Positions 1 to 55,948 of a stretch of 64,000 bases of DNA are shown in pieces; within the stretch, counting starts at the first letter, position 1; every line of letters begins with the position of its first letter. The notes beneath the pieces are model-generated. The model did no database searches. It was given only the letters and a program-made list of their open reading frames with translations, and was not told where the DNA came from. The DNA is taken from assembly GCA_030141605.1 (NCBI GenBank), contig JAQGDQ010000324.1:145125-209124 (forward strand). Reading direction: 5' to 3'. This DNA comes from Tubiluchus corallicola. Lineage: Eukaryota; Animalia; Priapulida. The position numbers were made by a program, and so were the translations under genes.

Positions 1-517
1 GGCTTTGAGTGTGTAAAACAAAGAAATCAAGCTAGGTATGAAGATCAGCTAATCACATAAATGTAATTTACTTATGTACCTTTCCTCATACAAAATAGTA
101 CGTAATGTGTCTGCTATGTTCCTTTTTTTCATGTGCAGGTTTTCTTAAATTACAAGCTACTTAACTGCCTTAGATGGATACAACAATTGTTTAATACTCC
201 AGCACTAATTTTTACTAATCCATATATTACAGAATGTCTAATTCTCATAGAAGAATTTCAACTGCATTTATAGTTTATTGCAACTACATCTGTGCCAACT
301 GCAAACTGCGGGAAATCCGTATTAGATGTTCTATTTAATCTGTTGCATCGTCATAAAATAACAAACTCGTTACCAAGGGATACAGCGGTTAGTTGTAGGT
401 TACCTAGGATCTGGGTTTCTTGGATAATGCAAACAGCAAAATGAGACCATAAGGTGCCAGGCACTCATCAAATTTAAGAATCGTTCCTGAAGGAAGGGTA
501 CAAGCTGGACCTGTGAA

Positions 518-866
518 ATGGATCGTAAGTAACATTACCTGTTAGCTTTACTACTTTGAATACCTAATATAAGCTTGTCTATTTGCTAACTTTATCGTTG
601 TCACTTGTACACTTACAGAAGCACAAGTTATTAAATTCACAACTACTTTCAGAAAGAGTTTTTGGTTTGCAGGACCAAGATCTGCCAGTAGTTCCAGGAG
701 GAGACGTTCTAGGGGAAGACGGAGGTCACCACAAAGGCGCCACCGCAGTCAAAGTGGCAGATCCAGAACTAAAAGATCTCAAAGTCGTAGAAAAAGCAAG
801 AGCAGAATACGCAAGGCCAGGCCAGGTACGAAGCCAGGAGGAATATCAAATTGCAAAGTACAGTAG
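518..866 (+). CDS. Arg/Ser-rich protamine-like small protein with C-terminal CaaX (copy 1, 66 aa); join(518..524,673..866)
   Basis: ATGGATC|gtaagt donor at 525 and ttgcag acceptor ending 672. Spliced product MDRPRSASSSRRRRSRGRRRSPQRRHRSQSGRSRTKRSQSRRKSKSRIRKARPGTKPGGISNCKVQ* (21 Arg, 6 Lys, 14 Ser). AATAAA at 1202. Same structure in three paralogues. Confidence 0.85.
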
Positions 867-2289
867 AAAAGAATGGAACCTAAAAGAGCCTAAATACCTA
901 AACCAGTCATACCATTTTGCCAAGTGATTCCATCTGCAAAAATTGGACATAGTTGGAAATATGCGGTTTTTCCCAATATATTTGCTTGCAAGAAAGAGTG
1001 ACAAAAAATTCGATTGTTTCACCCATGAAATAGTGTGCGGTCCAGTGCTGAGAAAAGTAACACAAAAGCTTATTCAAGATGCGATAAGCACTTCTATACA
1101 CAACAGACAGTGTACTTATGGACATCTAAATCAGTTAAAGATGTGACTTCCGTTTTAAAATAGAAACCATGAACTATACTTAAGTTTATAAAACATAGAA
1201 TAATAAATGAAAAATGGAACTTGTTGTTATAAATTTCTGATTTTTAACTCATATATCTGATGTGTTTATTCCTACCAGTAGGAAAGCCAGTAATGGCTGT
1301 TTTTGCTTGGTTGCAGAAAATTCTGACTTTTTGTCCATTTCTTTGTTTTTTTTTACTTTTTTTATTTCCAACATCTCAGCCTACAAGGAATTTGTCAACT
1401 ATTCGATTTAGGAGATGGGCATGTGACAGTGGTTCAGGTGTTTTATATTTTTTTAACCTAAGTACACGGCCAAAGTGATAAAAAAAATTGCGGAAGCCAT
1501 TAGAATTCTAGTGGGTAATATTATTTAAAGGTACTTTCACACATACTGTGTTTCATTTTGGTTAAATTACCACGACGCAGCAGGTGAGAGAGCAAACAGA
1601 ATAGAAACAAAAGCAAAATGTCTGACATTTGTTATCATGGACATTGTAACCACACAATTAAGTTTGAAACAAAGTGCCCCCAGGTTAGATCAAGCCAAAA
1701 AAAGGAAACTATATTGCAGCTCATTCACAGTTAAGCCTTAACACAACTCAATCGCCATTTCATCATTTTCATTTTTAAGCTTTTCAAACACTATCATATT
1801 TTTCATTTCATCTCACTTTCGAGCATAGTTTCAAGGCTTTATACATTTGGTAATTTTCAATTAAGGCACGACGTTAAATTTTCTTACTGGCTTAACTACA
1901 CGAGCAGATCTGACTGTTTGGCAGTTGCAAAAACCACAAAAGGAAAATCTAGTTGGTAAATTCATTTCCACGAAATTCTTCAAAACATTCTGTTTGATTT
2001 GTCTTCCATTATTCCATGAAATGGCTATCGGAGAGAACAAGTTAAAAATAAAATGAGAAACAGAAGAACGAATGATGTTGAAAAAGCGAAACTAAGATCT
2101 ACAAGTGATGGTATCTACATTTTTTAACTTGGTTTCAGGATTTGTGATTTTGCCATGGCTGCCAACACTAGAATAACTTGCTAAGAAGATTACAAATTGG
2201 AAATCACTGTTATTCAATTGTGATGTCATCAATTTCAAATGTCGTTCTTAATTTGTTAACTGATCTAAGGGTACAAGCTTGGGTGATCA

Positions 2290-2520
2290 ACGAAGCGTAA
2301 GTAACTTGGCATGTCTCCACTAGTATTTTGTCTGCCTAGTTTAGTCTACACTGTCTATTTGATAATGTATTTTTTGACACTGTATATTTAATTGTCTACT
2401 TTGTATATTTTACATACCACTTGCACACGTACAGAATCACAAGTTATTGTTTTATTTTCACAAAGCGAATTTTCACCTTACAGGACCAGGATCTCCCTGC
2501 AGTTCTAAAAGCAGGTGCTA
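2290..2520 (+). pseudogene. Start-less, truncated paralogue of the RS-CaaX gene
   Basis: ACGAAGC|gtaagt replaces ATGGATC|gtaagt. Homologous intron to ttacag (2483). Exon 2 starts GACCAGGATCTCCCTGCAGTTCTAAAAGCAGG and is cut after ~35 nt by the upstream region of the next copy. Confidence 0.65.
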
Positions 2521-2618
2521 CAAGCTGGAAATTATCATTGTTCAATTGTGACTTCATCAAATTCAAACGTCATTCTTAATTTGTTAATCGAAGGAAGGGT
2601 ACAAGCTGGACTAGTGAA

Positions 2619-2741
2619 ATGGCTCGTAAGTAACACTGCCTGTCAGCTCTAGTGTTTTATCTACCTAATCTAGTTTACTTTGTCTATTTGCTAGCCTTAT
2701 CTCTGTCACTTGTACACCTATAGAACCACAAGTTATAGTTT
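2619..2741 (+). pseudogene. Orphan first exon (ATGGCTC|gtaagt) with a partial intron of copy-3 type
   Basis: Matches 5062-5185 and is interrupted at the duplication junction (~2742). Confidence 0.6.
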
Positions 2742-2959
2742 GTGCAAACTGCGGGAAATCCGTATTAGATGTTCTATTTAATCTGTTGCACTGTCATAAA
2801 ATAATAAACTCGTTACCAAGGATACAGCGGTTAGTTCTAGGTTACCTAGGATTTGGGTTTCTTGGATACTGCAAACAGCAAAATGATACCATAAGGTGCC
2901 AGGCACTCATCAAATTTAAGAATCGTTCCTGAAGGAAGGGTACAAGCTGGACCTGTGAA

Positions 2960-3314
2960 ATGGATCGTAAGTAACATTACCTGTTAGCTATACTACTTTG
3001 AATACCTAATATAAGCTTGTCTATTTGCTAACTTTATCGTTGTCACTTGTACACTTACAGAAGCACAAGCTATTAAATTCACAACTACTTTCAGAAAGAG
3101 TTTTTGGTTTGCAGGACCAAGATCTCCCAGTAGTTCCAGGAGGAGACGTTCTAGGGGAAGACGGAGGTCACCACAAAGGCGTCACCAAAGTCAATGTGGC
3201 AGATCAAGAGCTAGAAGACCCCGAAGTCGTGGAAGAAACAAGAGTAGAACACAAGTGGCCAAATCACGTAAAGATCCATATACAGAGGTCGATCCAAATT
3301 GCAATATACAGTAG
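2960..3314 (+). CDS. Arg/Ser-rich protamine-like CaaX protein (copy 2, 68 aa); join(2960..2966,3115..3314)
   Basis: ATGGATC|gtaagt ... ttgcag|GACC. Product MDRPRSPSSSRRRRSRGRRRSPQRRHQSQCGRSRARRPRSRGRNKSRTQVAKSRKDPYTEVDPNCNIQ*. AATAAA at 3643. Confidence 0.85.
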
Positions 3315-4737
3315 AAATCACTGAAGGAGCCTGAAAGAGACTAAATGCCTAAAACCAGTCATACCATTTTGTCAAAAGATTCCATCTGCAAAAATTGGAC
3401 ATAGGTGGAAATATACGGTTTTTTGCTTGCAACAAAGTGTGACAAAAAATTCATTTGTTTCACCCATGAAATAGTGTGCTGTCCAGTGCTGAGAAAAGTA
3501 ACACAAAAGCTTATTCAAGATGCGATAAGCACTTCTATACACAACAGACAGTGTACTTATGGACATCTAAATCAGTTAAAGATGTGACTTCCGTTTTAAA
3601 ATAGAAACCATGAACTATACTTAAGTTTATAAAACATAGAATAATAAATGAAAAATGGAACTTGTTGTTATAAATTTCTGATTTTTAACTCATATATCTG
3701 ATCTGTTTATTCCTACCAGTAGGAAAGCCAGTAATGGCTGTTTTTGCTTGGTTGCAGAAAATTCTGACTTTTTGTCCATTTCTTTGTTTTTTTTACTTTT
3801 TTTATTTCCAACATCTCAGCCTACAAGGAATTTGTCAACTATTCGATTTAGGAGATGGGCATGTGACAGTGGTTCAGGTGTTTTATATTTTTTTAACCTA
3901 AGTACACGGCCAAAGTGATAAAAAAAATTGCGGAAGCCATTAGAATTCTAGTGGGTAATATTATTTAAAGGTACTTTCACACATGCTGTGTTTCATTTTG
4001 GTTAAATTATCACGACGTAGCAGGTGAGAGAGCAAACAGAATAGAAACAAAAGCAAAATGTCTGACATTTGTTATCATGGACATTGTAACCACACAATTA
4101 AGTTTGAAACAAAGTGCCCCCAGTTTAGATCAAGCCAAAAAAAGGAAACTATATTGCAGCTCATTCACATTTAAGTCTTAACACAACTCAATCCCCATTT
4201 CATCATTTTCATTTTTGAGACTTTTTCAAACACTATCATTTTTTTTTATTTCATTTCATCTCACTTTCGAGCATAGTTTCAAGGCTTTATACATTAGGTA
4301 GTTTTCAATTAAGGCACGACGTTAAATTTTCTTACTGGCTTAACTACATGAGCAGAACTGACTACTTGGCAGTTGCAAAAACCACAAAAGGAAAATCTAG
4401 TTGGCAAATTCATTTCCACGAAATTCTTCAAAATATTGTGTTTGATTTGTCTTCGATTATTCCATGAAATGGCTATCAGAGAGAACAAGTTAAAAATATA
4501 ATGAGAAACAGAAGAACGAACAATGTTGAAAAAGCGAAACTAAGACCTACAAGTGATGGTATCTACATTTTTTAACTTGGTTTCAGAATTTGTGATTTTG
4601 CCATGGCTGCCAACACTAGAATAACTTGCTAAGAATATTACAAATTGGAAATCACTGTTATTCAATTGTGATGTCATCAATTTCAACTGTCGTTCTTAAT
4701 TTGTTAACTGATCTAAGGGTACAAGTTTGGGTGATCA

Positions 4738-4968
4738 ACGAAGCGTAAGTAACTTGGCATGTCTCCACTAGTATTTTGTCTGCCTAGTTTAGTCTACACT
4801 GTCTATTTGATAATGTATTTTTTGACATTGTATATTTAGTTGTCTACTTTGTATATTTTACATACCACTTGCACACGTACAGAATCACAAGCTATTGTTT
4901 TATTTTCACAAAGCGAGTTTTCACCTTACAGGACCAGGATCTCCCTGCAGTTCTAAAAGCAGGTGCTA
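4738..4968 (+). pseudogene. Start-less, truncated paralogue of the RS-CaaX gene
   Basis: Near-identical to 2290-2520 (ACGAAGC|gtaagt; ttacag|GACCAGGATC at 4932). Confidence 0.65.
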
Positions 4969-4996
4969 CAAGCTGGAAATTATCATTGTTCAATTG

Positions 4997-5004
4997 TGAC
5001 TTCA
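4997..5004 (+). promoter_or_regulatory. CRE-like octamer upstream of copy 3
   Basis: TGACTTCA 65 nt before the ATG. Equivalent sites: TGAGGTCA at 11192, TGACTTCA at 2549, TGATGTCA at 2221. Each is followed by TCTTAAT. Confidence 0.4.
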
Positions 5005-5061
5005 TCAAATTCAAATGTCATTCTTAATTTGTTAACCGAAGGGTACAGCTGGACTAGTGAA

Positions 5062-5423
5062 ATGGCTCGTAAGTAACACTGCCTGTCAGCTCTAGTGTTT
5101 TATCTACCTAATCTAGTTTACTTTGTCTATTTGCTAGCCATATCTCTGTCACTTGTACACCTATAGAACCACAAGTTATAGTTTCACAACTACTTTCAGA
5201 AAGAGTTTTCACTTTTCACTTTGCAGGACCTAGATCTCCCAGTGGTTCCAGAAGCAGGCGTTCCAGGGGAAGACAGAGGTCAACAGAAAGACGTCACCGT
5301 AGTCGAAGTGGCAGATCAAGAGCTAGAAGATCCCAAAGTCGTGGAAGAAGCAAGAGTAGACCCAAAGTGGCCAAATCAGGTGATGCATGGCGAAATATCA
5401 ATCCAGGTTGCAATATACAGTAG
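5062..5423 (+). CDS. Arg/Ser-rich protamine-like CaaX protein (copy 3, 67 aa); join(5062..5068,5227..5423)
   Basis: ATGGCTC|gtaagt ... ttgcag|GACC. Product MARPRSPSGSRSRRSRGRQRSTERRHRSRSGRSRARRSQSRGRSKSRPKVAKSGDAWRNINPGCNIQ*. AATAAA at 5761. Confidence 0.85.
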
Positions 5424-6724
5424 AAATGACTGAAGACGCCTAAAAAAGACTAAATGCCTAAAAACCAACCATACCATTTTGTCAAAGAATGCCACCTGTA
5501 AAAATTGGACATTACTGGAATTTTCCCCCTTAATGTTTGCTTGCAATAAGAAATGACAAAAAACAAATTGTCTTACCTCACTGCAAAGTCGTGTAGTCCA
5601 GGACTGAGAAAAGTAACTCAAAAGTTTACTCAAGACATAAGAAGCATTTCTTCCATACACCAAAGACAGTACGCTTATGGACATTTAAATCAGTTAAAGA
5701 TGTGAATTCCATTTTAAAATAGAAACCATGTACTACACGTAAGTTCATAAAACATAGAATAATAAACGAAAAATGTTCTATTGGAACTTGTTGTTATAAA
5801 TTTCTGATTTTTAACTCATATGTCTGATCTGTTTATTCTTACCAGTAGGAAAGCCAATAAAGGCTGTTTTTGCCAGGTTGCAAAAAATTCCGACTTTTTG
5901 TCCATTTCTTTGTCTTTTTACTTTTTCTATTTCCAACATTCCTGCATACAGGGAATTTGTCAAGTATTCGAATCAGCATATGGGCATGTGACAGTGGCCC
6001 AGGTGTTTTAAATTTTTTTCTTACCTAAGCATACAGCGAAATAGATAAAAAACTGCAGAAGCTACGAGAATTCTAGAGGGTAATACTATTCAAGGGTACT
6101 TTCACACATGCTGTGTTTCACTTTGGTTAAATTATCACCACCCAGCAGGTAAGAGAGCAAACAGAATAGAAAGTCAGACATTCATTACCAAGCAGCCAAT
6201 TAAGTATGAAGCAAGATGATTCATACTTACTTCGAGTCCAGATTTCATTAAGGAAGCCATGAAATTTAATAAAATTAGTGTGACATTTTAAGTTACAGTT
6301 AGCTCTTTTAATCAAAGAAAACTTGTTTTTACGTTAAATTAGACTTTTAAGGGAAAATATACAAAAAGAGCAATGACATACTCCTCTCCTCACAATAGAA
6401 ACAAAATGAATAGATTGATTGTAGAAGAATACACAAAAATAATTTCGCAAGGTTCTTGCGCATCAATGCTATCTCTGCTTTGACGTCGTTCCCGAAAGTA
6501 ACCGGTTTTCATTTTCTTCCTGCTGTTTTTCTTACTTCTTCAAATTCTGTTTATTTTCACATCAAGGTCCCAGATAGCTCAGCAGTGTATCACAGTATTA
6601 TTTTGGTCAATCAGTCTGACGAGTAGTCTGACGAGAAACTACACAGGATGACTTAGAGTTTAGTGAACATAGCATATCAATTTTTAATGCATAATCAAAG
6701 TGGTAACGGTCGTTGTTGTCATTA

Positions 6725-7010
6725 CCAGATGGAATAGTTTAATGGTAAATGTCCACTTTCCATCTGGAAGGTTGTGAGTTCAATACTGTGGCCAGTTAAT
6801 ACTGAAATACTTTAAAAATGGTACAGTGCTGTTGCCCTGCCTGGCAGGTAGTATTTAGGGTAAAAGTGGGGTAATAATAGTCTCTTTTATGTAGTTGTAG
6901 TTTGTTATTTACAGTCGGAGATAAAAGCCTCAGGCTGGCAGGCTTGCGTTGTCTGTTGAATTTAAAGCTGACTTTAAATAAAGGTTATTGTTATTATTAT
7001 TATTATTATT
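6725..7010 (+). mobile_element. tRNA-derived SINE, MetaSINE-like
   Basis: A box (TAGTTTAATGG), B box (GAGTTCAATAC), core AAATACTTTAAAAATGGTAC..GCTG, then AATAAA and a (TTA)n tail. Confidence 0.55.
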
Positions 7011-9083
7011 TACATGTGTGTTTTATATTTATATTATGGGAATTATCCAAAAAACTATATTAATGTTTTTCAAATTTCAAAACGTTAAGCCATGCTTACT
7101 TTTCTGTGCTACACTACACTATACCGCCAAGGCACATTACACTATAGTTTATTACACATAAGTGCCAAAATGCACGTAGCTTTATGCATCCCAATCTTGT
7201 AATTTGCTGCCAATTAGTCCATTCATTGTTAACACCTGTAATCAGTACTTGGACAGGTGAGTTAATCAGCTCGTTATATGAAAAAGTAACGAAACGTTAT
7301 GTCGCAGGTTACAAAAGCCAAGCATGAAGGTTTCGTTCTTGAAGACTTGCAGAACAACTGGTTTTTGAAGTCATAATGATTTAAAGAAAAAGAGAATATA
7401 TTTCGTACGCTGATCTATTCCATATATGGTAAAAAGTATTCTTTTTAACATCTGTAATAATGCCAAGGCATTTGTGATAATTAAATAGTAGATTAACAAT
7501 TTGATTACTGGCTGCATAGCCTAGCTAGTGATGACATCACAATTGAACATAATTTTCAACAGCACAAACATTCCACGAGCGTGCTGCATATCATTGCGAA
7601 ATCAAAACTGACGCACAGTGCTACTGTACAACAATCAGTATTACATAAAAGAACTCAGAAAATTTTAAGTCTAAAATTCAAATTTCAAGTTTAGCGCTAT
7701 GCTCATGTACGAGTTCTCGAACACGTGCACTACATCGCAACTGAATATCCTCTGAAGTGAGAGGTATGGAGCTTGTTTTTATGCAATGCGTTTCCGTGAC
7801 TGGGAAGCTGAGCTATGAGAACGCTTTTTATATCATTATTCTAAATACGGCGCAATGCAAGTTAACTTATTGGAAAAATCAAGGTTGGGCTTATTCTAAT
7901 GTACGGGGAAATTGGTTGAGAGTTTCAGCAATAAAAGTCCGATAAGCAACTCGTGTTTTTAATCACTTTAAAATCGCCTTCATTTCGTACCTGAGCGTAA
8001 TATTGTTGAACGAGTAATGACAGTGCGTCCTGATTTTTGATCTGTTTATTCTTACCAGTAGGAAAACCAGTAATGGCTGTTTTTGCTTGGTTGCAGAAAA
8101 TTCGGACTTTTTGTCCATTTCTTTGTTTTTTTTACTTTTTTATTTCCAACATCTCAGCCTACAAGGAATTTGTCAACTATTCGATTTAGGAGATGGGCAT
8201 CTGACAGTGGCCCAGGTGTTTTATATATTTTTAACCTAAGCACACTGCAAAGTGATAAAAAAATTGCGGAAGCCATTAGAATTCTAGTGTATGTATTATT
8301 TAAGGGTACATTCACACATGCTGTGTTTCATTTTGGTTAAATTATCACGACGTAGCAGGTGAGAGAGCAAACAGAATCGAAACAAAAGCAAAATGTCTGA
8401 CATTTGTTATCATGGATATTGTAACCACACAATTAAGTTTGAAACAAAGTGCCCCCAGTTTCGATCAAGCCAAAAAAGGAAACTATAATGCAGCTCATTC
8501 ACATTTAAGTCTTAACACAACTCAATCCCCATTTCATCATTTTCATTTTTGAGACTTTTTCAAACACTATCATTTTTTTTATTTCATTTCATCTCACTTT
8601 CGTGCATAGTTTCAAGGCTTTATACATTAGGTAGATTTCAATTAAGGCACAACGTTAAATTTTCTTACTGGCTTAACTACAGGAGCCGAACTGACTATTT
8701 GGCAGTTGCAAAAACCACAAAAGGAAAATCTAGTTGGTAAATTCATTTCCACGAAATTCTTCAAAACATTCTGTTTGATTTGTCTTCGATTATTCCATGA
8801 AATGGCTATTGGAGAGAACAAGTTAAAAATATAATGAGAAACAGAAGAACGAATAATGTTGAAAAAGCAAAACTAAGAACCACAAGTGATGGTATCTACA
8901 TTTTTTAACTTGGTTTCAGGATTTGTGATTTTGGCATGGCAAAATACTAAAGCTAAAAACACTAGAATAACTTGCTAAGAAGATTACAAATTGGAAATCA
9001 CTGTTATTCAATTGTGATGTCATCAAATTCAAATGTCGTTCTTAATTTGTTAACTGATCTAAGGGTACAAGCTTGGGTGATCA

Positions 9084-9314
9084 ACGAAGCGTACGTAACT
9101 TGGCATGTTTCCACTAGTATTTTATCTGCCTAGTTTAGTCTACACTGTCTATTTGATAATGTATTTTTTGACACTGTATATTTAATTGTCTACTTTGTAT
9201 ATTTTACATGTCACTTGCACACGTACATAATCACAAGTTATTGTTTTATTTTCACAAAGCGAGTTTTCACCTTACAGAACCAAGATCTCCCTGCAGTTCC
9301 AAAAGCAGGTGCTA
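9084..9314 (+). pseudogene. Start-less, truncated paralogue of the RS-CaaX gene
   Basis: ACGAAGC|gtacgt; ttacag|AACCAAGATCTCCC at 9278; truncated like the other two. Confidence 0.6.
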
Positions 9315-9386
9315 CAAGCTGGAAATTATCATTGTTCGATTGTGACTTCATCAAATTCAAACGTCATTCTTAATTTGTTTCTCCCT

Positions 9387-12300
9387 AATTGACATTTTTC
9401 CCAAGATGTTTGTTTGCAACAAAAAGTGACAAAAAATGACTTGTTTCATCCGTGAAACCGTGTGCAGTCAAGAGCTGAGAAAATAAGTCAGAGGAATATG
9501 CAAAATGTAAGCAGCACTTCTTTCAAGTACTATAGACAGTACACTTAACAGAGAAACTGTTATGTTAAAAATGATAATGAAAATAAAGAAATATTTTTAA
9601 TTATTGAAACTTGCTGTTATACTTTCGATTTATATTTCAGACATTCTTTAAATTTAAAAATTAAGTTTTCCCTTTTAAGGTCGAATATTTTCTTCAAAAT
9701 GCTCTCAATTGTAACTGGCCTCGTTTATCGCCACCAAGTTTGTAATTGAGAGAACAAGTTAAAATGATGATGACGGTTTTAATAAGAAAACAAAAAAAAG
9801 AGAAGAACAAGGAATGCTGAAAAAGCAAAATGATGAACTTCAGGTGATGGTTGAAGATTACAAGTGTTATTTCAAAAAAGATTTAAATGTTTAAGCTAGG
9901 TACGGAGCTTGTTTTTGTGCAATGTGTTTCCGAGATATAAGCGCTGGAGCCCATCTAACTACTAGCAAATAGCGATTTGCGTGTAACAATGAAGAGCTAG
10001 CCACGAGAACACAAAATTATGTTTCTGTATTAATAATTCTTTCATGCCTTTCACGCAAAACATTCTTGAAAAAATAGCCTGTTCCCTTTCAATATTTTAA
10101 AAAATAGATTGCTTTAAGTTGCGGATTGGGTCCGGCTTTCTTTTAGTCCAAGTATGGCTACAGATTAACCCTTTCACTTCAGAAGACGGCACACTGCCCA
10201 CATTTTTCGTGTAAAAGACGGAAGGCGATAAACTGCCGCCAGAGCTCAGCACTATGCGCAGTCACTCAGGTCTGTTTATTTCACTGCTATGGCCATGAGA
10301 ACAAGTTAAAATGATGATGACGGTTTTAATAAGAAAACAAAAAAAAAGAGAAGAACTAGGGATGCTGAAAAAGCAAAATGATGAACTTCAGGTGATGGTT
10401 GAAGATTACAAGTGTTATTTCAAAAAAGATTTAAATGTCTAATATGTAAAAATGAGAATGATACTGCAGCACTTGTGACGAAATGTGGAATGATAGAAAA
10501 ATATTGTGAAACTACAAAATTTTAAATGGAAACACCATTAAATCTGAAGAGACAGATGATTAACAAGAAGTGATTAATTATATTAAACTAGCAATGGAGA
10601 TGAGAAAATGCAGAGGTTTTGAACTTACAATGCACAATGAAGACTAAGGAAAACACTTAAAAGAAGAAGTTTGTGAGAGATGCTTTGTAATTTTTTTTAA
10701 ATATTTAAAGGACTTAATAGTGCCTGCTAGTTTAACAGAGTCGGCATAGAGAAGACCATGACAGTTATAAGTGGTGGTGGCATCACTTTTCTGGACAAGC
10801 CATAAAATGTTCAATTATGTTGCAATAAGATTCAAACTGTGTTTATTTTAATCGGCCAATTGATGTATTTTGTGTGATTGTAAGATATTTTTATGTATTT
10901 GTCAATCCTGTGTTTTAAAGAATATCCATTTCTCATAGAAGAATTTTAATCATACTTTTAGCTGATAGCAAACTATAGGAAGTTCGTATCAATTCTTCTA
11001 TAGTGCTGTCGTAAAATTCTAAATTCGCTACCAAGGATCACATTTATTATTATGTTACCTAACATTCTGGGCTTCCTACTTGGATATTTCAAACAGCAAA
11101 ATGAGAGCTAAAGATGCAAGACACTCTCTGTAGGAAGCTAAAGGCCTTAAAATAACTTGCCAAGGGACTGAAAATTAGCATTGTTCAATTGTGAGGTCAT
11201 CAAATTCAAATGTCATTCTTAATTTGTTAACTGAAGGAAGGGTACGAGCTGGACTAGTGAGAAATGGATCGTAAGTAACATTACCTGTCAGCTTTACTAT
11301 ATTTATTATTATCTACCTAGTCTAGTCTACTTTTCTATTAATTTTGCTAACCTTAACTTTGTTACTTGTACACTCATAGAACCACAAGTTATAGTTTCAC
11401 AGCTACTTTCAGAAAGAGTTTTCACTTTTCACTTTGCAGGACCTAGATCTCCCAGTGGTTCCAGAAGCAGGCGTTCCAGGGGAAGACAGAGGTCAACAGA
11501 AAGACGTCGCCGTAGTCGAAGTGGCAGATCAAGAGCTAGAAGATCCCAAAGTCGTGGAAGAAGCAAGAGTAGAGCTCGCAGGACTAAACCAGATGAGATC
11601 AAAAAGGCATATCCACCACACCATGCCCCACCTGGTTGCAATATATTGTAGAAATGATTGAAGGAGAGGTGCCTAAATCCTGTCGTAACACTTTGTAATA
11701 AAATCCTATCTGCAAAAATTGGAAATAATTGCAAATTGACATTTTTCCCAAGATGTTTGTTTGCAACAAAAAGTGACAAAAAATGACTTGTTTCATCCAT
11801 GAAACTGTGTACAGTCAAGAGCTGAGAAAATAAGTCAGAGGTATATGCAAAATGTAAGCAGCACTTCTTTCAAGTACTATAGACAGTACACTTAACAGAG
11901 AAACTCCGTGATGCTCATCAAGATGTACAAATGATAATGAAAATAAAGAAATATTTTTAATTATTGAAACTTGCTGTTATACTTTCGATTTATATTTCAG
12001 ACATTCTTTAAATTTAAAAATTAAGTTTTCCCTTTAAAGGTCCAATATTTTCTTCAAAATACTCTGAATTGTATTTGACCTCGTTTATCACCACCAAGTG
12101 GGTAATTGAGAGAACAAGTTAAAATGATGATGACGGTTTTAATAAGAAAACAAAAAAAAGAGAAGAACAAGGAATGTTGAAAAAGCAAAATGATGAACTT
12201 CAGGTGATGGTTGAAGATTACAAGTGTTATTTCAAAAAAGATTTAAATGTCTAAGCTAGGTACGGAGCTTGTTTTTATGCAATGTGTTTCCGAGATATAA

Positions 12301-13497
12301 GCGCTGGAGCCCATCTAACTACTAGCAAATAGCGATTTGCGTGTAACAATGAAGAGCTAGCCATGAGAACACAAAATTATGTTTCTGTATTAATAATTCT
12401 TTCATGCCTTTCATGCAAAACATTCTTGAAAAAATAGCCTGTTCCCTTTTAATATTTTAAAAAATAGATTGCTTTAAGTTGCGGATTGGGTCAGGCTTTC
12501 TTTTAGTCCAAGTATGGCTACAGATTAACCCTTTCACTTCAGAAGACGGCACACTGCCCACATTTTTCGTGTAAAAGACGGAAGGCGGTAAACTGCCACC
12601 AGAGCTCAGCACTATGCGCAGTCACTCGGGTCTGTTTATTTCACTGCTATGGGCATGAGAACAAGTTAAAATGATGATGACGGTTTTAATAAGAAAACAA
12701 AAAAAAGAGAAGAACTAGGGATGTTGAAAAAGCAAAATGATGAACTTCAGGTGATGGTTAAAGATTACAAGTGTTATTTCAAAAAAGATTTAAATGTCTA
12801 ATATGTAAAAATGAGAATGATACTGCAGCACATGTGATGAAATGTGGAATGATAGAAAAATATTGTCCAACTACAAAATTTTAAATGGAAACACCATTAA
12901 ATCTGAAGAGACAGATGATTAACAAGAAGTGATTAATTATATTAAACTAGCAATGGAGATGAGAAAATGAAGAGGTTTTGAACTTACAATGCACAATGAA
13001 GACTAAGGAAAAAACTTAAAAGAAGAAGTTTGTGAGTGATGCCTTGTAATTTTTTTAAATATTTAAACGACTTAATAGTGCCTGCTAGTTTAACAGAGTC
13101 GGCATAGAGAAGACCATGACAGTTATAAGTGGTGGTGGCATCACTTTTCTGGACAAGCCATAAAACTACTAGCAAATAGTGATTTGCGTGTAACAATGAA
13201 GAACTAGCCACGAGAACACAAAATTATGTTTCTGTATTAATAATTCTTTCACGCCTTTCATGCAAAACATTCTTGAAAAAATAGCCTGTTTCCTTTCAAT
13301 ATTTTAAAAAATAGATTGCTTTAAGTTGCGGATTGGGTCCGGCTTTCTTTTAGTATGGCTGCAGATTAACCCTTTCACTTCAGAAGACGGCACACTGCCC
13401 ACATTTTTCGTGTAAAAGACGGAAGGCGGTAAATTGCCGCCCGAGCTCAGCACTATGCGCAGTCACTCGGGTCTGTTTATTTCACTGCTATGGCCAT
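9387..13497. repeat. Second segmental duplication block
   Basis: 9387-10805 matches 11735-13165, and 13166-13497 matches 9958-10296. It includes an orphan copy of the copy-4 3' UTR. Separately, 7795-8028 matches 14002-14243. Confidence 0.85.
11264..11651 (+). CDS. Arg/Ser-rich protamine-like CaaX protein (copy 4, 72 aa); join(11264..11270,11440..11651)
   Basis: ATGGATC|gtaagt ... ttgcag|GACC. Product MDRPRSPSGSRSRRSRGRQRSTERRRRSRSGRSRARRSQSRGRSKSRARRTKPDEIKKAYPPHHAPPGCNIL*. AATAAA at 11942. Confidence 0.85.
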
Positions 13498-14653: not shown

Positions 14654-53480
<38,827 letters not shown>

Positions 53481-55948
53481 TAGCAACCCTGCTAACAAAA
53501 TAAGAACTAAAATTAACGGCTAATAATGATTCAAGGTTAAGTGAACATAAATAACTTAATTAGCAGTTTGTTTCTAATTAACATTTAAATTCAAGAGTAA
53601 ACAGAATGAATTGGAAATCATCTCAATAGTAGCAACCACTGAATCCTTGGTCTGAAAAACACTAAATATCAGGCTTAACATATAACATATGCAGTTATAT
53701 TGAAGACCATATAAAATTACTTAACACTAAATTTTACATTACTTAAATTAAAATTAAAAAATCGATTCACACCCTTCACAGCCTTTCTTTGCTTTTCTAC
53801 TTTCAAACTATGTCAAAGCTTACAAAATTATACCACAAAAATTTTCCTCCTCCAAAACATACTTATGTAGTCATTGGTTATAAATAAAACACCATAGTCA
53901 CAAAAAATTAGATAGGCCCGAGTTAGCTCACAAGGCTGATATACATACTAGAACTAGAACAAACGGAAAATCATCGTTTTGTTGGAAAAATCATTAGATT
54001 GGCATTAATTGAGTATATATAATGAAATGTTAAGTAATAATCCAATAGCGCAGATAAAACAGACCTTCGGTTCATATCCACTAGATTTGTGTTAGACAAC
54101 AATAAAGATGGACCACTGCCTATGAATCATAGGCCTTCATGTTACAAATGTTACCAGCATTTCAGTAATTTCATTTCATCATTCAACAATTCAGAATTAC
54201 TGACAGCGATGACTGCACAATATTTTCCTTTTATTTGCAAGTCGCTCTTAATAAAAAAAAGTTCATGAAATGTCTTTTCGTCAGCGAAACTGTTCTTGCT
54301 ATTTGAGGGTTTTAGACTTACATCTGTTAATGTGAAAATAACCGAGAAAACATTGATGACCTTACTTCACTCTCAGCCAGTGTAACAGGATTTCAGCGCA
54401 TATATTCCATGATTTGCTAGCAAATTTCATTCTTTTTTAGATGTTGGAGAACAGAAATTGCAATGGTCAGAGTTATTCCCTCAATTTTTGGTAGTGTAGT
54501 TTATGTAAACTTCTCATGGTTTAAATTTTAGTTGCAAGTCTGTTCCTTTAGAACCGTTGTTATCCATTTTTCTTTTTGTACGTTGTGCAAGAGTGTTGTA
54601 ATAAGGCTAATGTTGAGTTCTTTTTTAGACTTATTCACTAACGTGATTTGTACTGGTTGCGCTAAACATATACAAATAAATGGTAAATAAATAATTCACT
54701 TGTCATTAGTCTTTTTCAGAAGTTTGTACTAGACTTCAAAATAAACATCTATAATGCATCATCAATAAACATCATCAAACATTAATAAAGTTTCTTCGTT
54801 TTGACATGTTTTTCCTGTACAGTTTTACTGCATCGCACAGGTAATAATGAATAAAGAACAATAGTAATCGGGCGAGCAGGTATGTGTTCTCAGCAAGGAA
54901 AATGCAAACACACTCTCGAATTTTCAAGTAGTTCGGGACCAAACGACAACAAAAGACGAATTTGCAATCAAAAACAAATAGGTCTATAACTAGTCAAGGC
55001 ATGTGTACAGTACAATTTGCTTGGCAATCTTGCAATCTATTTCATTCTTTTGAATTTACATTCTGCATATTATTATCATTACACAAATACAATTGCAGCC
55101 TCACATAGCTACCAACACACGAACTCTAGGAGTACCGATTTATTTTCTATCACTTATTTGCAGAACTGAATAAGTAAACAAATCACCTTTTATAAAACAT
55201 CTCACCTTAAAACCCCAAAGATAAGGTCAATAGCAGCTACTAGTATGCACTGTTATTATTTCAGCAATAAGTTGAAGATGGGTATTTGCTATCAAAACCC
55301 GCACGTGTTGACCCAGTTTGGCCGCATACTTTCTGAGCAAATTTCTGTAAACATTAACAATGGCGGGCAGAGATTTTGAAGGAGATTTGCTGGCAAATAT
55401 CAAGATCTCCGTACTTCCTGTTTAAATGTATGTTTAACATCCATTGTCCATTGGACTGGTGGCACATTACTGCGAGGAATGTACACAAATTAAACAATTT
55501 CAGCAGTGAGTCATGGAGCTAAGTGTCCCAAGCACACGGGAAAACAATTTACAGTATGAGAATATTCTAAAATTCTAGATTTGAACCCAAATAAAAAACA
55601 CAAAGAAAAATGAATAATTAACTAATATTTAAAATGTGAGAGAAGCAGGCTTGAGATAGTTAAAAATACTGAGGTATTTGTTTCGCACTATGCCACCATC
55701 ATGTTTACCAACATCAGTTCTTGACAAGACGACTGAGGCCAGATGTTGCATTACAAGTCTACAGAGAAAAAAGCTTAAATCTAGGTTGACTGCTTGTATA
55801 AAAATTAACACACTGGAAAAAACAAAATGAAAATGTGATGTCCTTAGAATAGAAAGTGATTTGCTGCAATTTACACTGCACGAAAGAAGTACATCTGCAG
55901 AAAATTGGATAACTTTATTATCCAAGACGTTGAACTTAAGAACATTAA

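Follow-up and report, generated by a model that had tools for sequence, protein, structure and literature searches.

A tandem family of small Arg/Ser-rich, protamine-like proteins with predicted CaaX prenylation motifs in Tubiluchus corallicola

It is understood only in part how the condensation of sperm chromatin starts at the nuclear envelope and is shaped by it. Protamines in the strict sense contain 45–80% His+Lys+Arg and 10–25% Ser+Thr+Gly, and an H1 winged helix or H1-like precursor is found in many protamine-like (PL) proteins, but not in all. Prenylated ends occur on other nucleic-acid-related proteins, such as the farnesylated large hepatitis delta antigen, and Nap1 is an acidic chaperone.

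Protamines have masses of 3–10 kDa and protamine-like proteins of 6–40 kDa (PMC11607694, in the excerpt available). In partial sources, mammalian protamine 1 is reported to associate with the lamin B receptor (LBR) during spermiogenesis, and the RS domain of LBR is described as binding chromatin and being switched by SRPK1 (PMC5617974). The claim in the first-pass annotation that a basic import signal plus a CaaX box targets proteins to the nuclear membrane agrees with a GFP-NLS-CaaX chimera that is active there (PMC2947476, in part); the same excerpt reports no direct binding of Kugelkern to chromatin. A CaaX box combined with a polybasic run, including runs in which Arg replaces Lys, is also a standard plasma-membrane tag (PMC12633465, excerpt), and Nap1L1, ending in CKQQ, is a chromatin-related protein with a farnesylated end (PMC10320760, excerpt).

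The locus described here lies in a 64,000-nucleotide stretch of T. corallicola DNA (the window) and encodes four proteins of 66–72 amino acids. Their masses (7.7–8.4 kDa) and Arg content (29.9–31.8%) correspond to small, highly Arg-rich protamines, and with 34.3–40.9% Arg+Lys they also match the protamine-like class; the value of about 41% given earlier for copy 1 was recomputed as 40.9%. The whole proteins, with 35.8–42.4% Arg+Lys+His and 23.5–31.8% Ser+Thr+Gly, do not comply with the strict protamine limits; the corresponding values for the cores alone are 44.7–48.9% and 27.7–38.3%. They resemble the protamine and protamine-like sperm nuclear basic proteins in size, Arg richness, RS/RRRS-type serines, few acidic residues and tandem, fast-changing genes, and differ in a C-terminal CaaX that follows a weakly basic linker, the lack of an H1 winged-helix precursor, a lower total basic content and the lack of any matching record, the sperm role being only predicted. 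With LBR they share an RS tract joined to a membrane anchor, so that chromatin binding and SRPK1 switching might by analogy be possible; LBR itself, however, contains a Tudor domain and another globular domain and crosses the membrane eight times, compared with 7–8 kDa and a predicted lipid anchor here, and no homology is claimed. Lamin Dm0/B and Drosophila Kugelkern likewise combine a basic signal with CaaX, which is enough to act on the nuclear membrane (PMC2947476, in part), but the present proteins are without coiled coil or rod, and lamins and Kugelkern are not DNA-condensing polycations. The large delta antigen and Nap1L1 are both folded and larger, and neither is a protamine.

Gene structure and reading frame

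Four intact two-exon genes are arranged in tandem on the forward strand, with start codons at 518, 2960, 5062 and 11264. GTAAGT directly follows the 7-nt coding exon in each of the four, and TTTGCAG precedes the first base of every exon 2 (673, 3115, 5227 and 11440). In copy 1, coding exon 1 (518–524) is composed of ATG plus 4 nt, with G at +4 and a purine at −3, and is followed by a predicted phase 1 intron of 148 nt (525–672) and the coding part of exon 2 (673–866), which comprises the RS core (673–806), the linker (807–851) and CKVQ with its stop (852–866); the protein has 66 amino acids and AATAAA occurs at 1202. Copy 2 (2960–3314; 68 amino acids) has exon 1 at 2960–2966, a 148-nt intron at 2967–3114, the coding part of exon 2 at 3115–3314, CNIQ and stop at 3300–3314 and AATAAA at 3643. 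The same elements of copy 3 (5062–5423; 67 amino acids) are at 5062–5068, 5069–5226 (158 nt), 5227–5423, 5409–5423 (CNIQ and stop) and 5761, and those of copy 4 (11264–11651; 72 amino acids) at 11264–11270, 11271–11439 (169 nt), 11440–11651, 11637–11651 (CNIL and stop) and both 11697 and 11942. We infer splice junctions at 524/673, 2966/3115, 5068/5227 and 11270/11440 from these signals. Without splicing, every ATG runs into a stop after 4 codons; upstream of the ATG the frame is closed in copies 1, 2 and 4, and indels and stops vary there from copy to copy. These coordinates, junctions, lengths and C-terminal ends reproduce those of the first-pass annotation for the four intact copies, and a tblastn search with the filter off returned no fifth intact copy within the 64-kb window.

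The Arg/Ser frame is the sole open frame that has a start codon and a pN/pS below 1 (0.34–0.74 in five of the six copy pairs, the five with synonymous changes), which upholds its earlier assignment as the coding frame. That the locus is non-coding, or that an acidic open frame starting DQDL is translated, is very improbable. The acidic frame is open across exon 2 in all four copies, and an upstream TTTCAG would join the ATG of copies 1 and 2 to it, but it has no ATG of its own, its pN/pS is 0.9–2.5, and it stays open in 14–100% of trials after shuffling of the RS-frame codons. As the distance from the TTTCAG to the downstream acceptor is 20 nt in copies 1 and 2 versus 27 nt in copies 3 and 4, and as 7 nt at 5206 are absent from contigs of sequencing run X1, this stretch is probably intronic. 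The sequence comparison supports real genes under selection in the Arg/Ser frame, and it suggests that the proteins are made and that their tail matters.

Each protein is laid out as a basic RS core of about 47 amino acids, gap-free in all copies and 40–43% Arg, followed by a variable linker of 15–21 amino acids and a Cys at position −4. There are 11–16 RS/SR dipeptides and 1–4 acidic residues per protein. The linker is weakly basic (3–5 basic residues in the last 19–25 amino acids), with the last basic residue 6–11 positions ahead of the Cys and the bulk of the charge 15–21 residues from it. Three of the four copies have a single Cys, and copy 2 has a second at position 30. The N-termini, inspected by eye in the translations, are Arg/Ser-rich and have no hydrophobic stretch or secretion leader. 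Judged by composition, the proteins look disordered. Pfam returned no family for any of the four exon-2 products. No H1 winged helix or H1-like precursor was found (Pfam in all four, and the closed upstream frame in copies 1, 2 and 4), nor a coiled-coil or rod domain as in lamins or Kugelkern (Pfam, composition and length); Pfam likewise gave no RRM, and 66–72 amino acids leave no room for the RRM plus RS domain of SR splicing proteins.

A further reading, in which each protein is an RS domain by itself that binds RNA or SR proteins and, in the germ line or soma, ties RNP granules (germ plasm, chromatoid body or speckles) to a membrane, is improbable. Neither an RNA-recognition nor any other Pfam domain is present in the four copies, and the cluster is tandem and fast-changing, unlike the genes for splicing-related RS proteins, which are usually conserved and single-copy. 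The large delta antigen, a prenylated basic RNA-binding protein, would nevertheless provide an analogue. The number of RS/SR dipeptides also favours such a role, and RS domains are described, in sources available in part, as oligomerising and associating with RNA.

The same layout bears on an unlikely alternative, in which the proteins are plasma- or acrosomal-membrane polycations resembling K-Ras4B, the lipid and the Arg cluster binding acidic phospholipids and Ser phosphorylation releasing them. A prenyl motif next to positive charge is what the K-Ras4B tail has too, and the last basic residue does come within 6–11 positions of the Cys. Here, however, the charge is far longer, RS-patterned and mostly set back from the Cys by the weakly basic linker, whereas the polybasic run of K-Ras abuts its CaaX; long Arg/RS tracts are usually nuclear import signals, and there is no GTPase or other cargo domain needing anchorage.

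Conservation and predicted prenylation of the tail

The C-terminal ends of copies 1–4 are CKVQ, CNIQ, CNIQ and CNIL, each with Cys fourth from the end, an aliphatic a2 residue and an accepted X. CNIQ is the C-terminal end of Rap2A and CNIL the geranylgeranylated end of GBP2; the identification of CKVQ as the farnesylation motif of CENP-F is confirmed in literature accessible in part. In published yeast screens of the full set of 8000 CXXX ends, all three rate as prenylation substrates. CKVQ and CNIQ are positive in four of four predictors and CNIL in three of four, in addition to its membership of the positive training set. Ydj1 heat-map scores are 6.4 for CKVQ, 5.6 for CNIQ and 4.1 for CNIL (cut-off 3), and the Ras heat-map gives 18.1 for CNIQ and 14.8 for CNIL versus 16.8 for canonical CVIA. 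The E-score of CNIL at 37 °C is 0.024, which places it among the 137 of 8000 sequences below 0.2, the group containing canonical geranylgeranylated ends. From these motif screens CKVQ and CNIQ are predicted to be farnesylated and CNIL geranylgeranylated, and -aaX would probably be removed from CNIQ and CNIL, with CKVQ uncertain in this respect. Since yeast farnesyltransferase takes the majority of CXXX ends, a positive score is a weak sign of selection for prenylation.

The linker before the Cys is only 43–69% identical among copies, and its lengths (45, 51, 48 and 63 nt in copies 1–4) are all multiples of three; the 3′ flanks contain 13 gaps, 9 of them of other lengths. In copy 1 a +2 shift is compensated by one of −5, and the frame is regained just before the Cys. 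The 200 nt directly behind the stop are also conserved (70–91%), so conservation of the tail is perhaps partly shared history, and the motif represents one origin rather than four because the copies are homologous. CaaX-like ends occur at 43 of 5898 six-frame stop codons in the window (0.7%), or at 43 of its 251 ends with Cys at −4 (17%). When the four observed substitutions were randomised over the last 15 nt, CaaX and stop were kept with p = 0.03, and with p = 0.19 when Cys and stop were taken as already fixed; these substitutions do not by themselves separate prenylation from the keeping of Cys and stop. The selection on the motif proposed in the first-pass annotation is thus borne out for a Cys tail held in frame across a hypervariable linker, but not by the substitution pattern of the last 15 nt.

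Such a pattern could conceivably arise in ordinary Cys-bearing protamine-like proteins, in which the Cys serves disulfides or zinc and the CaaX appearance is incidental, with or without some prenylation; this we regard as a minority possibility. It requires no new biology. In marine invertebrates, insects and vertebrates, Cys turns up sporadically in sperm basic proteins; copy 2 has its second Cys, frame-keeping in the linker is expected here as well, and the retention of CaaX given Cys and stop is unremarkable (the p of 0.19). A single Cys in three of the four copies would, however, allow dimers only. The Cys stands exactly at −4, a2 is Val or Ile and X is Gln or Leu, a form taken by just the 43 of 251 ends noted above, and prenylation, which is predicted in any case for a cytosolic product bearing such ends, would leave the thiol blocked.

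The variable part directly before a fixed CaaX, the length of 66–72 amino acids and the tandem multicopy layout also recall precursors of fungal a-factor-type prenylated signal peptides, from which the linker of 15–21 amino acids with its prenyl-Cys would be cleaved and exported as a different peptide for each copy; CNIQ and CNIL are, moreover, predicted to be cleaved. The agreement is limited to size, CaaX and tandem layout, and we consider this hardly credible: the ungapped, Arg-rich core is unlike pheromone pro-regions, part of the copy 1 linker is frame-shifted, so that its sequence seems to matter little, and we know of no a-factor-like peptide established in animals.

Cluster history and searches for relatives

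Beyond what had been annotated, the intact genes are interspersed with three degenerate copies lacking an ATG and a single 5′ fragment, all on the forward strand. The degenerate copies, at 2290–2520, 4738–4968 (immediately 5′ of copy 3) and 9084–9314 with approximate ends, have ACG for ATG, donors after 2296, 4744 and 9090 (the last GTACGT), acceptors before 2484, 4932 and 9278 and a truncated exon 2, which in the first stops after about 12 codons. The fragment (2619–2741) retains the ATG, the donor and part of the intron, and is broken at the junction of a recent forward-strand tandem duplication of a 2.44-kb unit (300–5184), the two units of which, 300–2741 and 2743–5184, are 94.6% identical by self-BLAST and contain copies 1 and 2; part of a third unit is found at 8038–9379. 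The arrangement is consistent with tandem birth-and-death with fast coding change. Copies 1 and 2 differ at 15 of 134 core sites versus 51 of 2087 flanking sites (Fisher p = 4e-6), and gene conversion can account for much of this change, since 9 of the 15 sites have the same base in copies 2 and 3.

In a copy-1-like contig from run X1, 14 differences were counted, of which 10 fall within the 194-nt coding exon and 7 of those 10 change the amino acid (p = 0.009); 12 of the 14 were itemised, and the CaaX of this contig is therefore not certain to be intact. A low-depth X1 contig (2.2) is identical to 3302–3450, spanning most of the copy 2 CNIQ and its stop, and three further contigs align from 3352 on, with the Cys codon outside the alignment. 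A 586-nt X1 contig with 48 differences and 5 gaps relative to copy 2 over 2932–3252 looks like a further paralogue; on the assumption of a 3′ spacer equal to the copy 1 spacer, its stop would fall in frame. Run X2, presumed to be RNA, covers repeat stretches only and none of the four genes, and was left out of the evidence. A CRE-like TGANNTCA element is found 5′ of copies 3 and 4 and the degenerate copies; it was rejected as evidence of a testis promoter, being absent before copies 1 and 2. A formin gene of the FMN type neighbours the cluster and matches Priapulus caudatus at 68% (one match among 21 candidates; 0 of 18 in a second search).

Searches for relatives returned 0 of 452 candidates at E ≤ 0.01 in a profile search of a 5.8-billion set (lengths of 34–121 amino acids only), no HMMER match among 1.84 billion representatives, none among PDB sequences, and no usable match for copies 4 and 1 in the ESM Atlas (recognition 1521 and 1541; guide value 2300). 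Metagenome and viral contigs gave 600 pattern matches each, none confirmed; the exon-1/donor DNA motif had no match in metagenomes, and Rfam none over window positions 1–25000. These blanks weigh little because the sets hold few animals and the filters penalise biased composition. The earlier remark that no prenylated protamine family was known to its author still holds for the literature searched and for these sets, poor in animals as they are.

Possible role at the nuclear envelope

We prefer, with a probability of roughly 0.4, a reading in which the proteins are prenylated and protamine-like and hold spermatid chromatin to the inner nuclear membrane as it condenses. A sperm nuclear basic role is likely, with sperm expression assumed from composition and evolution alone; composition cannot prove it, as many unrelated proteins are RS-rich. 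By analogy with known systems, the Arg clusters would provide nuclear import and DNA binding, the lipid would insert into the inner nuclear membrane, and binding would be switched when an SRPK-type kinase phosphorylates the RS dipeptides, an arrangement equivalent to an LBR-type RS domain with the transmembrane part replaced by a lipid. Speculatively, cleavage in the linker as in prelamin A might leave a mature core of protamine composition. The lipid-anchored sperm protein proposed in the first-pass annotation gains from the selected RS frame, the in-frame Cys tail and the positive motif screens; its placement at the nuclear membrane is weakened by the polybasic, CaaX-bearing plasma-membrane signal of K-Ras type, which that annotation left out of account.

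More specifically, and tentatively, prenylated protamines may be lipid-anchored polycations that attach spermatid DNA straight to the inner nuclear membrane, nucleate its condensation there and contribute to the form of the sperm nucleus. Farnesylated paralogues would then be the weaker anchors and geranylgeranylated ones the stronger, and a linker cut of lamin A type might release the mature protamine. Should the proteins be ordinary cysteine protamines, the value of the locus falls to that of a new lineage-specific family. The locus also suggests that annotation probably overlooks prenylated basic micro-proteins, because a coding exon of 7 nt holds the start and the remainder is masked by low-complexity filters. 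If the tether reading is true, prenylation would be a new post-translational modification for the protamine-like class, and where a bridge between two proteins, protamine 1 and LBR, has been reported in mammals, a protamine-like protein that itself carries a lipid anchor would solve envelope attachment directly and with minimal means.

Gene structure and reading frame

The four intact genes of the tandem cluster (copies 1–4, plus strand, ATG at 518, 2960, 5062 and 11264) lie where the first-pass annotation had placed them. Each consists of the ATG plus 4 nt, a GTAAGT donor, an intron of 148–169 nt ending in TTTGCAG, and a single coding exon. Translation of the predicted spliced products, with junctions assigned from the sequence, gives proteins of 66, 68, 67 and 72 amino acids ending, as previously read, in CKVQ, CNIQ, CNIQ and CNIL. 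Without splicing, a stop is reached 4 codons after the ATG in all four copies. The frame is open further upstream of the ATG only in copy 3; 1- and 2-nt indels distinguish the copies here and copy 4 carries two in-frame stops immediately 5' of its ATG, so this stretch belongs to the 5' UTR and does not encode the end of some longer protein. AATAAA is found 329–338 nt 3' of the stop in copies 1–3, and 46 and 291 nt 3' of it in copy 4.

Three degenerate plus-strand copies (at 2290, 4738 and 9084) have ACG in place of ATG and lose exon 2 past about 12 codons, and a 5' fragment (2619–2741, plus strand) is cut off where the two units of a 2.44-kb tandem duplication meet. In the ATG-less copies (4738–5068; also 2290–2625 and 9084–9340) the donor and acceptor sites are still good, and each copy leads directly into sequence upstream of the following gene; such copies could serve copy 3 as spliced 5' UTR exons instead of being dead remnants. 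No fifth intact copy was found within the 64-kb window. As the cluster begins close to the window edge, it may extend beyond it and comprise more than four copies.

Besides the frame encoding the Arg/Ser-rich protein (RS frame), an acidic frame is open across exon 2 in all copies, with no ATG within its upstream open stretch. Among the five copy pairs having synonymous changes, pN/pS is 0.34–0.74 in the RS frame versus 0.9–2.5 in the acidic frame; the remaining pair, copies 3 and 4, shows a single difference and is not included. Shuffling of RS-frame codons (5000 trials) still left the acidic frame open in 14%, 59%, 56% and 100%, and this frame is thus largely a by-product of the RS-frame codons. 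That no RS protein is made at all is very improbable. In copies 1 and 2 a TTTCAG upstream of the main acceptor could splice into the acidic frame. It lies 20 nt from that acceptor in the first two copies, against 27 nt in copies 3 and 4, and contigs from DNA sequencing run X1 lack these 7 nt at 5206; the intervening stretch is therefore intronic.

Surroundings of the cluster

High-copy repeats at 6780–6930, 7375–7745 and 9898–10300, with very high X1 contig depth and several more copies in the window, break up the cluster. The first, which resembles a tRNA-derived SINE, has no match in Rfam. The 3' flank of copy 4 forms the start of a second local duplication (9387–10807 versus 11734–13165, 96% over 1.4 kb), and the coding part is gone from the upstream partner.

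The remainder of the window comprises repeats and one large multi-exon minus-strand gene (~21400–53519) directed toward the cluster. It includes a 754-codon open exon (51258–53519), and a weak DEP match (43980–44195), a proline-rich exon (37369–37836) and weak FH2 matches (32487–32885 and 25117–25398), all on the minus strand, identify it as a formin, which we take to be of the FMN/cappuccino type. The only protein it matches in the databases is one from Priapulus caudatus named 'mucin-19-like' (68% across two conserved blocks), apparently the N-terminal portion of the same formin. The source is accordingly an animal, probably an invertebrate one. No link between formin and cluster was found. 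The formin introns hold tandem arrays of 45-, 83- and 77/122-nt units (28824–29738, 19432–19914 and 45831–46365), and long (AAT)n, (CAG)n, (ACT)n and (GA)n stretches are numerous.

Core, linker and CaaX tail

The proteins are composed of three parts: a core of 47 residues (40–43% Arg) that aligns without gaps at 84–99% DNA identity, a linker with 43–69% identity, and a CaaX tail whose last 15 nt, stop included, are 73–100% identical. CNIQ is also the end of Rap2A, and CNIL that of GBP2.

The coding DNA of the cluster changes fast, with 15 of 134 sites differing between copies 1 and 2 in the core versus 51 of 2087 in the flanks (p = 4e-6). Gene conversion, instead of positive selection, is a real alternative explanation, because copy 2 equals copy 3 at 9 of the 15 sites and the first 143 aligned nt 3' of the stop differ by 11% between copies 1 and 2, as much as the core. 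A copy-1-like X1 contig shows 14 differences over 577–1101; among the 12 listed, 10 lie in the coding exon, 7 of which alter a residue. The cores of copies 3 and 4 (5227–5360 and 11440–11573) differ at 1 of 134 sites, with introns 87% and linkers 48% identical, and have probably undergone recent gene conversion limited to the RS core. A 586-nt X1 contig (aligned to 2932–3252 and from 875), ~85% similar to copy 2 and with a 3' end resembling that of copy 1, suggests a further paralogue outside the window, and copy number in the family probably varies.

The linkers measure 45, 51, 48 and 63 nt in copies 1–4, every one a multiple of three (a chance of about 1 in 27 for three independent length changes); of the 13 gaps in three pairwise 3'-flank alignments, 9 are not. 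One of six equal-scoring alignments of the copy 1 and copy 3 linkers has +2 and −5 nt changes with the frame restored directly before the Cys. Since a linker frameshift would reach a stop within 3–39 residues and leave the core intact, the kept frame points to constraint on the Cys tail itself. Selection on the terminal motif, as proposed in the first-pass annotation, is thereby upheld in part: for the CaaX residues proper, the four substitutions of the last 15 nt, if randomly placed, retain CaaX and stop with p = 0.03, p = 0.07 given the Cys and p = 0.19 given Cys and stop, and the copies share a single origin and are not independent occurrences. CaaX-like ends make up 43 of 5898 stops in the window, and 43 of 251 ends with Cys at −4. 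An ordinary cysteine-bearing protamine-like protein, in a class where Cys is sporadic (PMC11607694), is an unlikely reading, if one to be taken seriously.

Motif scores were taken from published screens covering all 8000 CXXX ends, and describe yeast enzymes, not those of this animal. CKVQ and CNIQ are positive in four of four prenylation predictors and CNIL in three, the last also belonging to the positive training set; cleavage is predicted by both predictors for CNIQ and CNIL and by one of two for CKVQ (PMC9231725). For CKVQ, CNIQ and CNIL, Ydj1 enrichment is 4.4, 3.3 and 1.1 (CASQ 1.6, CVIA 0.41, CDDD 0.16), Ydj1 heat-map values are 6.4, 5.6 and 4.1 (cut-off 3), and Ras-based scores are 5.9, 18.1 and 14.8 (CVIA 16.8, CDDD 0.5) (PMC10320760). 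Without farnesyltransferase at 37 °C, CNIL (0.024) is among 137 sequences under 0.2 with a canonical geranylgeranyl profile, and at 42 °C CNIQ is enriched (5.3) and CKVQ is not (0.05) (PMC11304957). CKVQ is employed as the CENP-F farnesylation motif in PMC4384735, in keeping with the earlier reading; none of the three motifs occurs in the main text of PMC11152559. The products are likely to be prenylated, if the protein is made. Yeast farnesyltransferase takes the majority of CXXX ends (PMC10320760), so a motif score says little on why the Cys is kept. A prenylated polycation could also act at the plasma membrane as K-Ras does (PMC12633465), which seems rather improbable, and a lipopeptide precursor like a-factor is hardly to be expected.

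Class membership and possible function

The products fall within protamine ranges for size and Arg and the protamine-like range for Arg+Lys, lie outside the strict protamine limits for both total basic content and Ser/Thr/Gly content, and lack an H1 domain. They are best filed as sperm nuclear basic protein (SNBP)-like and not as SNBP members, membership being defined by presence on sperm DNA. Searches with protein profiles and HMMER and of ESM Atlas, Pfam, PDB and metagenome and viral contigs returned no relatives. Nor did listings and abstract openings of the open-licence literature reveal a prenylated or CaaX-ended protamine, consistent with the earlier statement that no such family is described; older sperm-protein work is mostly in subscription journals.

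Precedents exist for each link of a possible mechanism. PMC2947476 describes NLS plus CaaX acting on the nuclear membrane, as the first-pass annotation had supposed; the RS domain of LBR binds chromatin and is regulated by SRPK1 (PMC5617974); and titles cited in PMC13327716 report protamine 1 phosphorylation by SRPK1 and its association with LBR. A membrane anchor for RNA granules, also conceivable for such a protein, is improbable. The gene family is real and its CaaX boxes are well formed. For its function we infer, with a probability of roughly 0.4, protamine-like proteins that would be prenylated in the cytosol, imported through their Arg clusters and anchored to the inner nuclear membrane, and would there bind and condense spermatid DNA under the control of RS phosphorylation.
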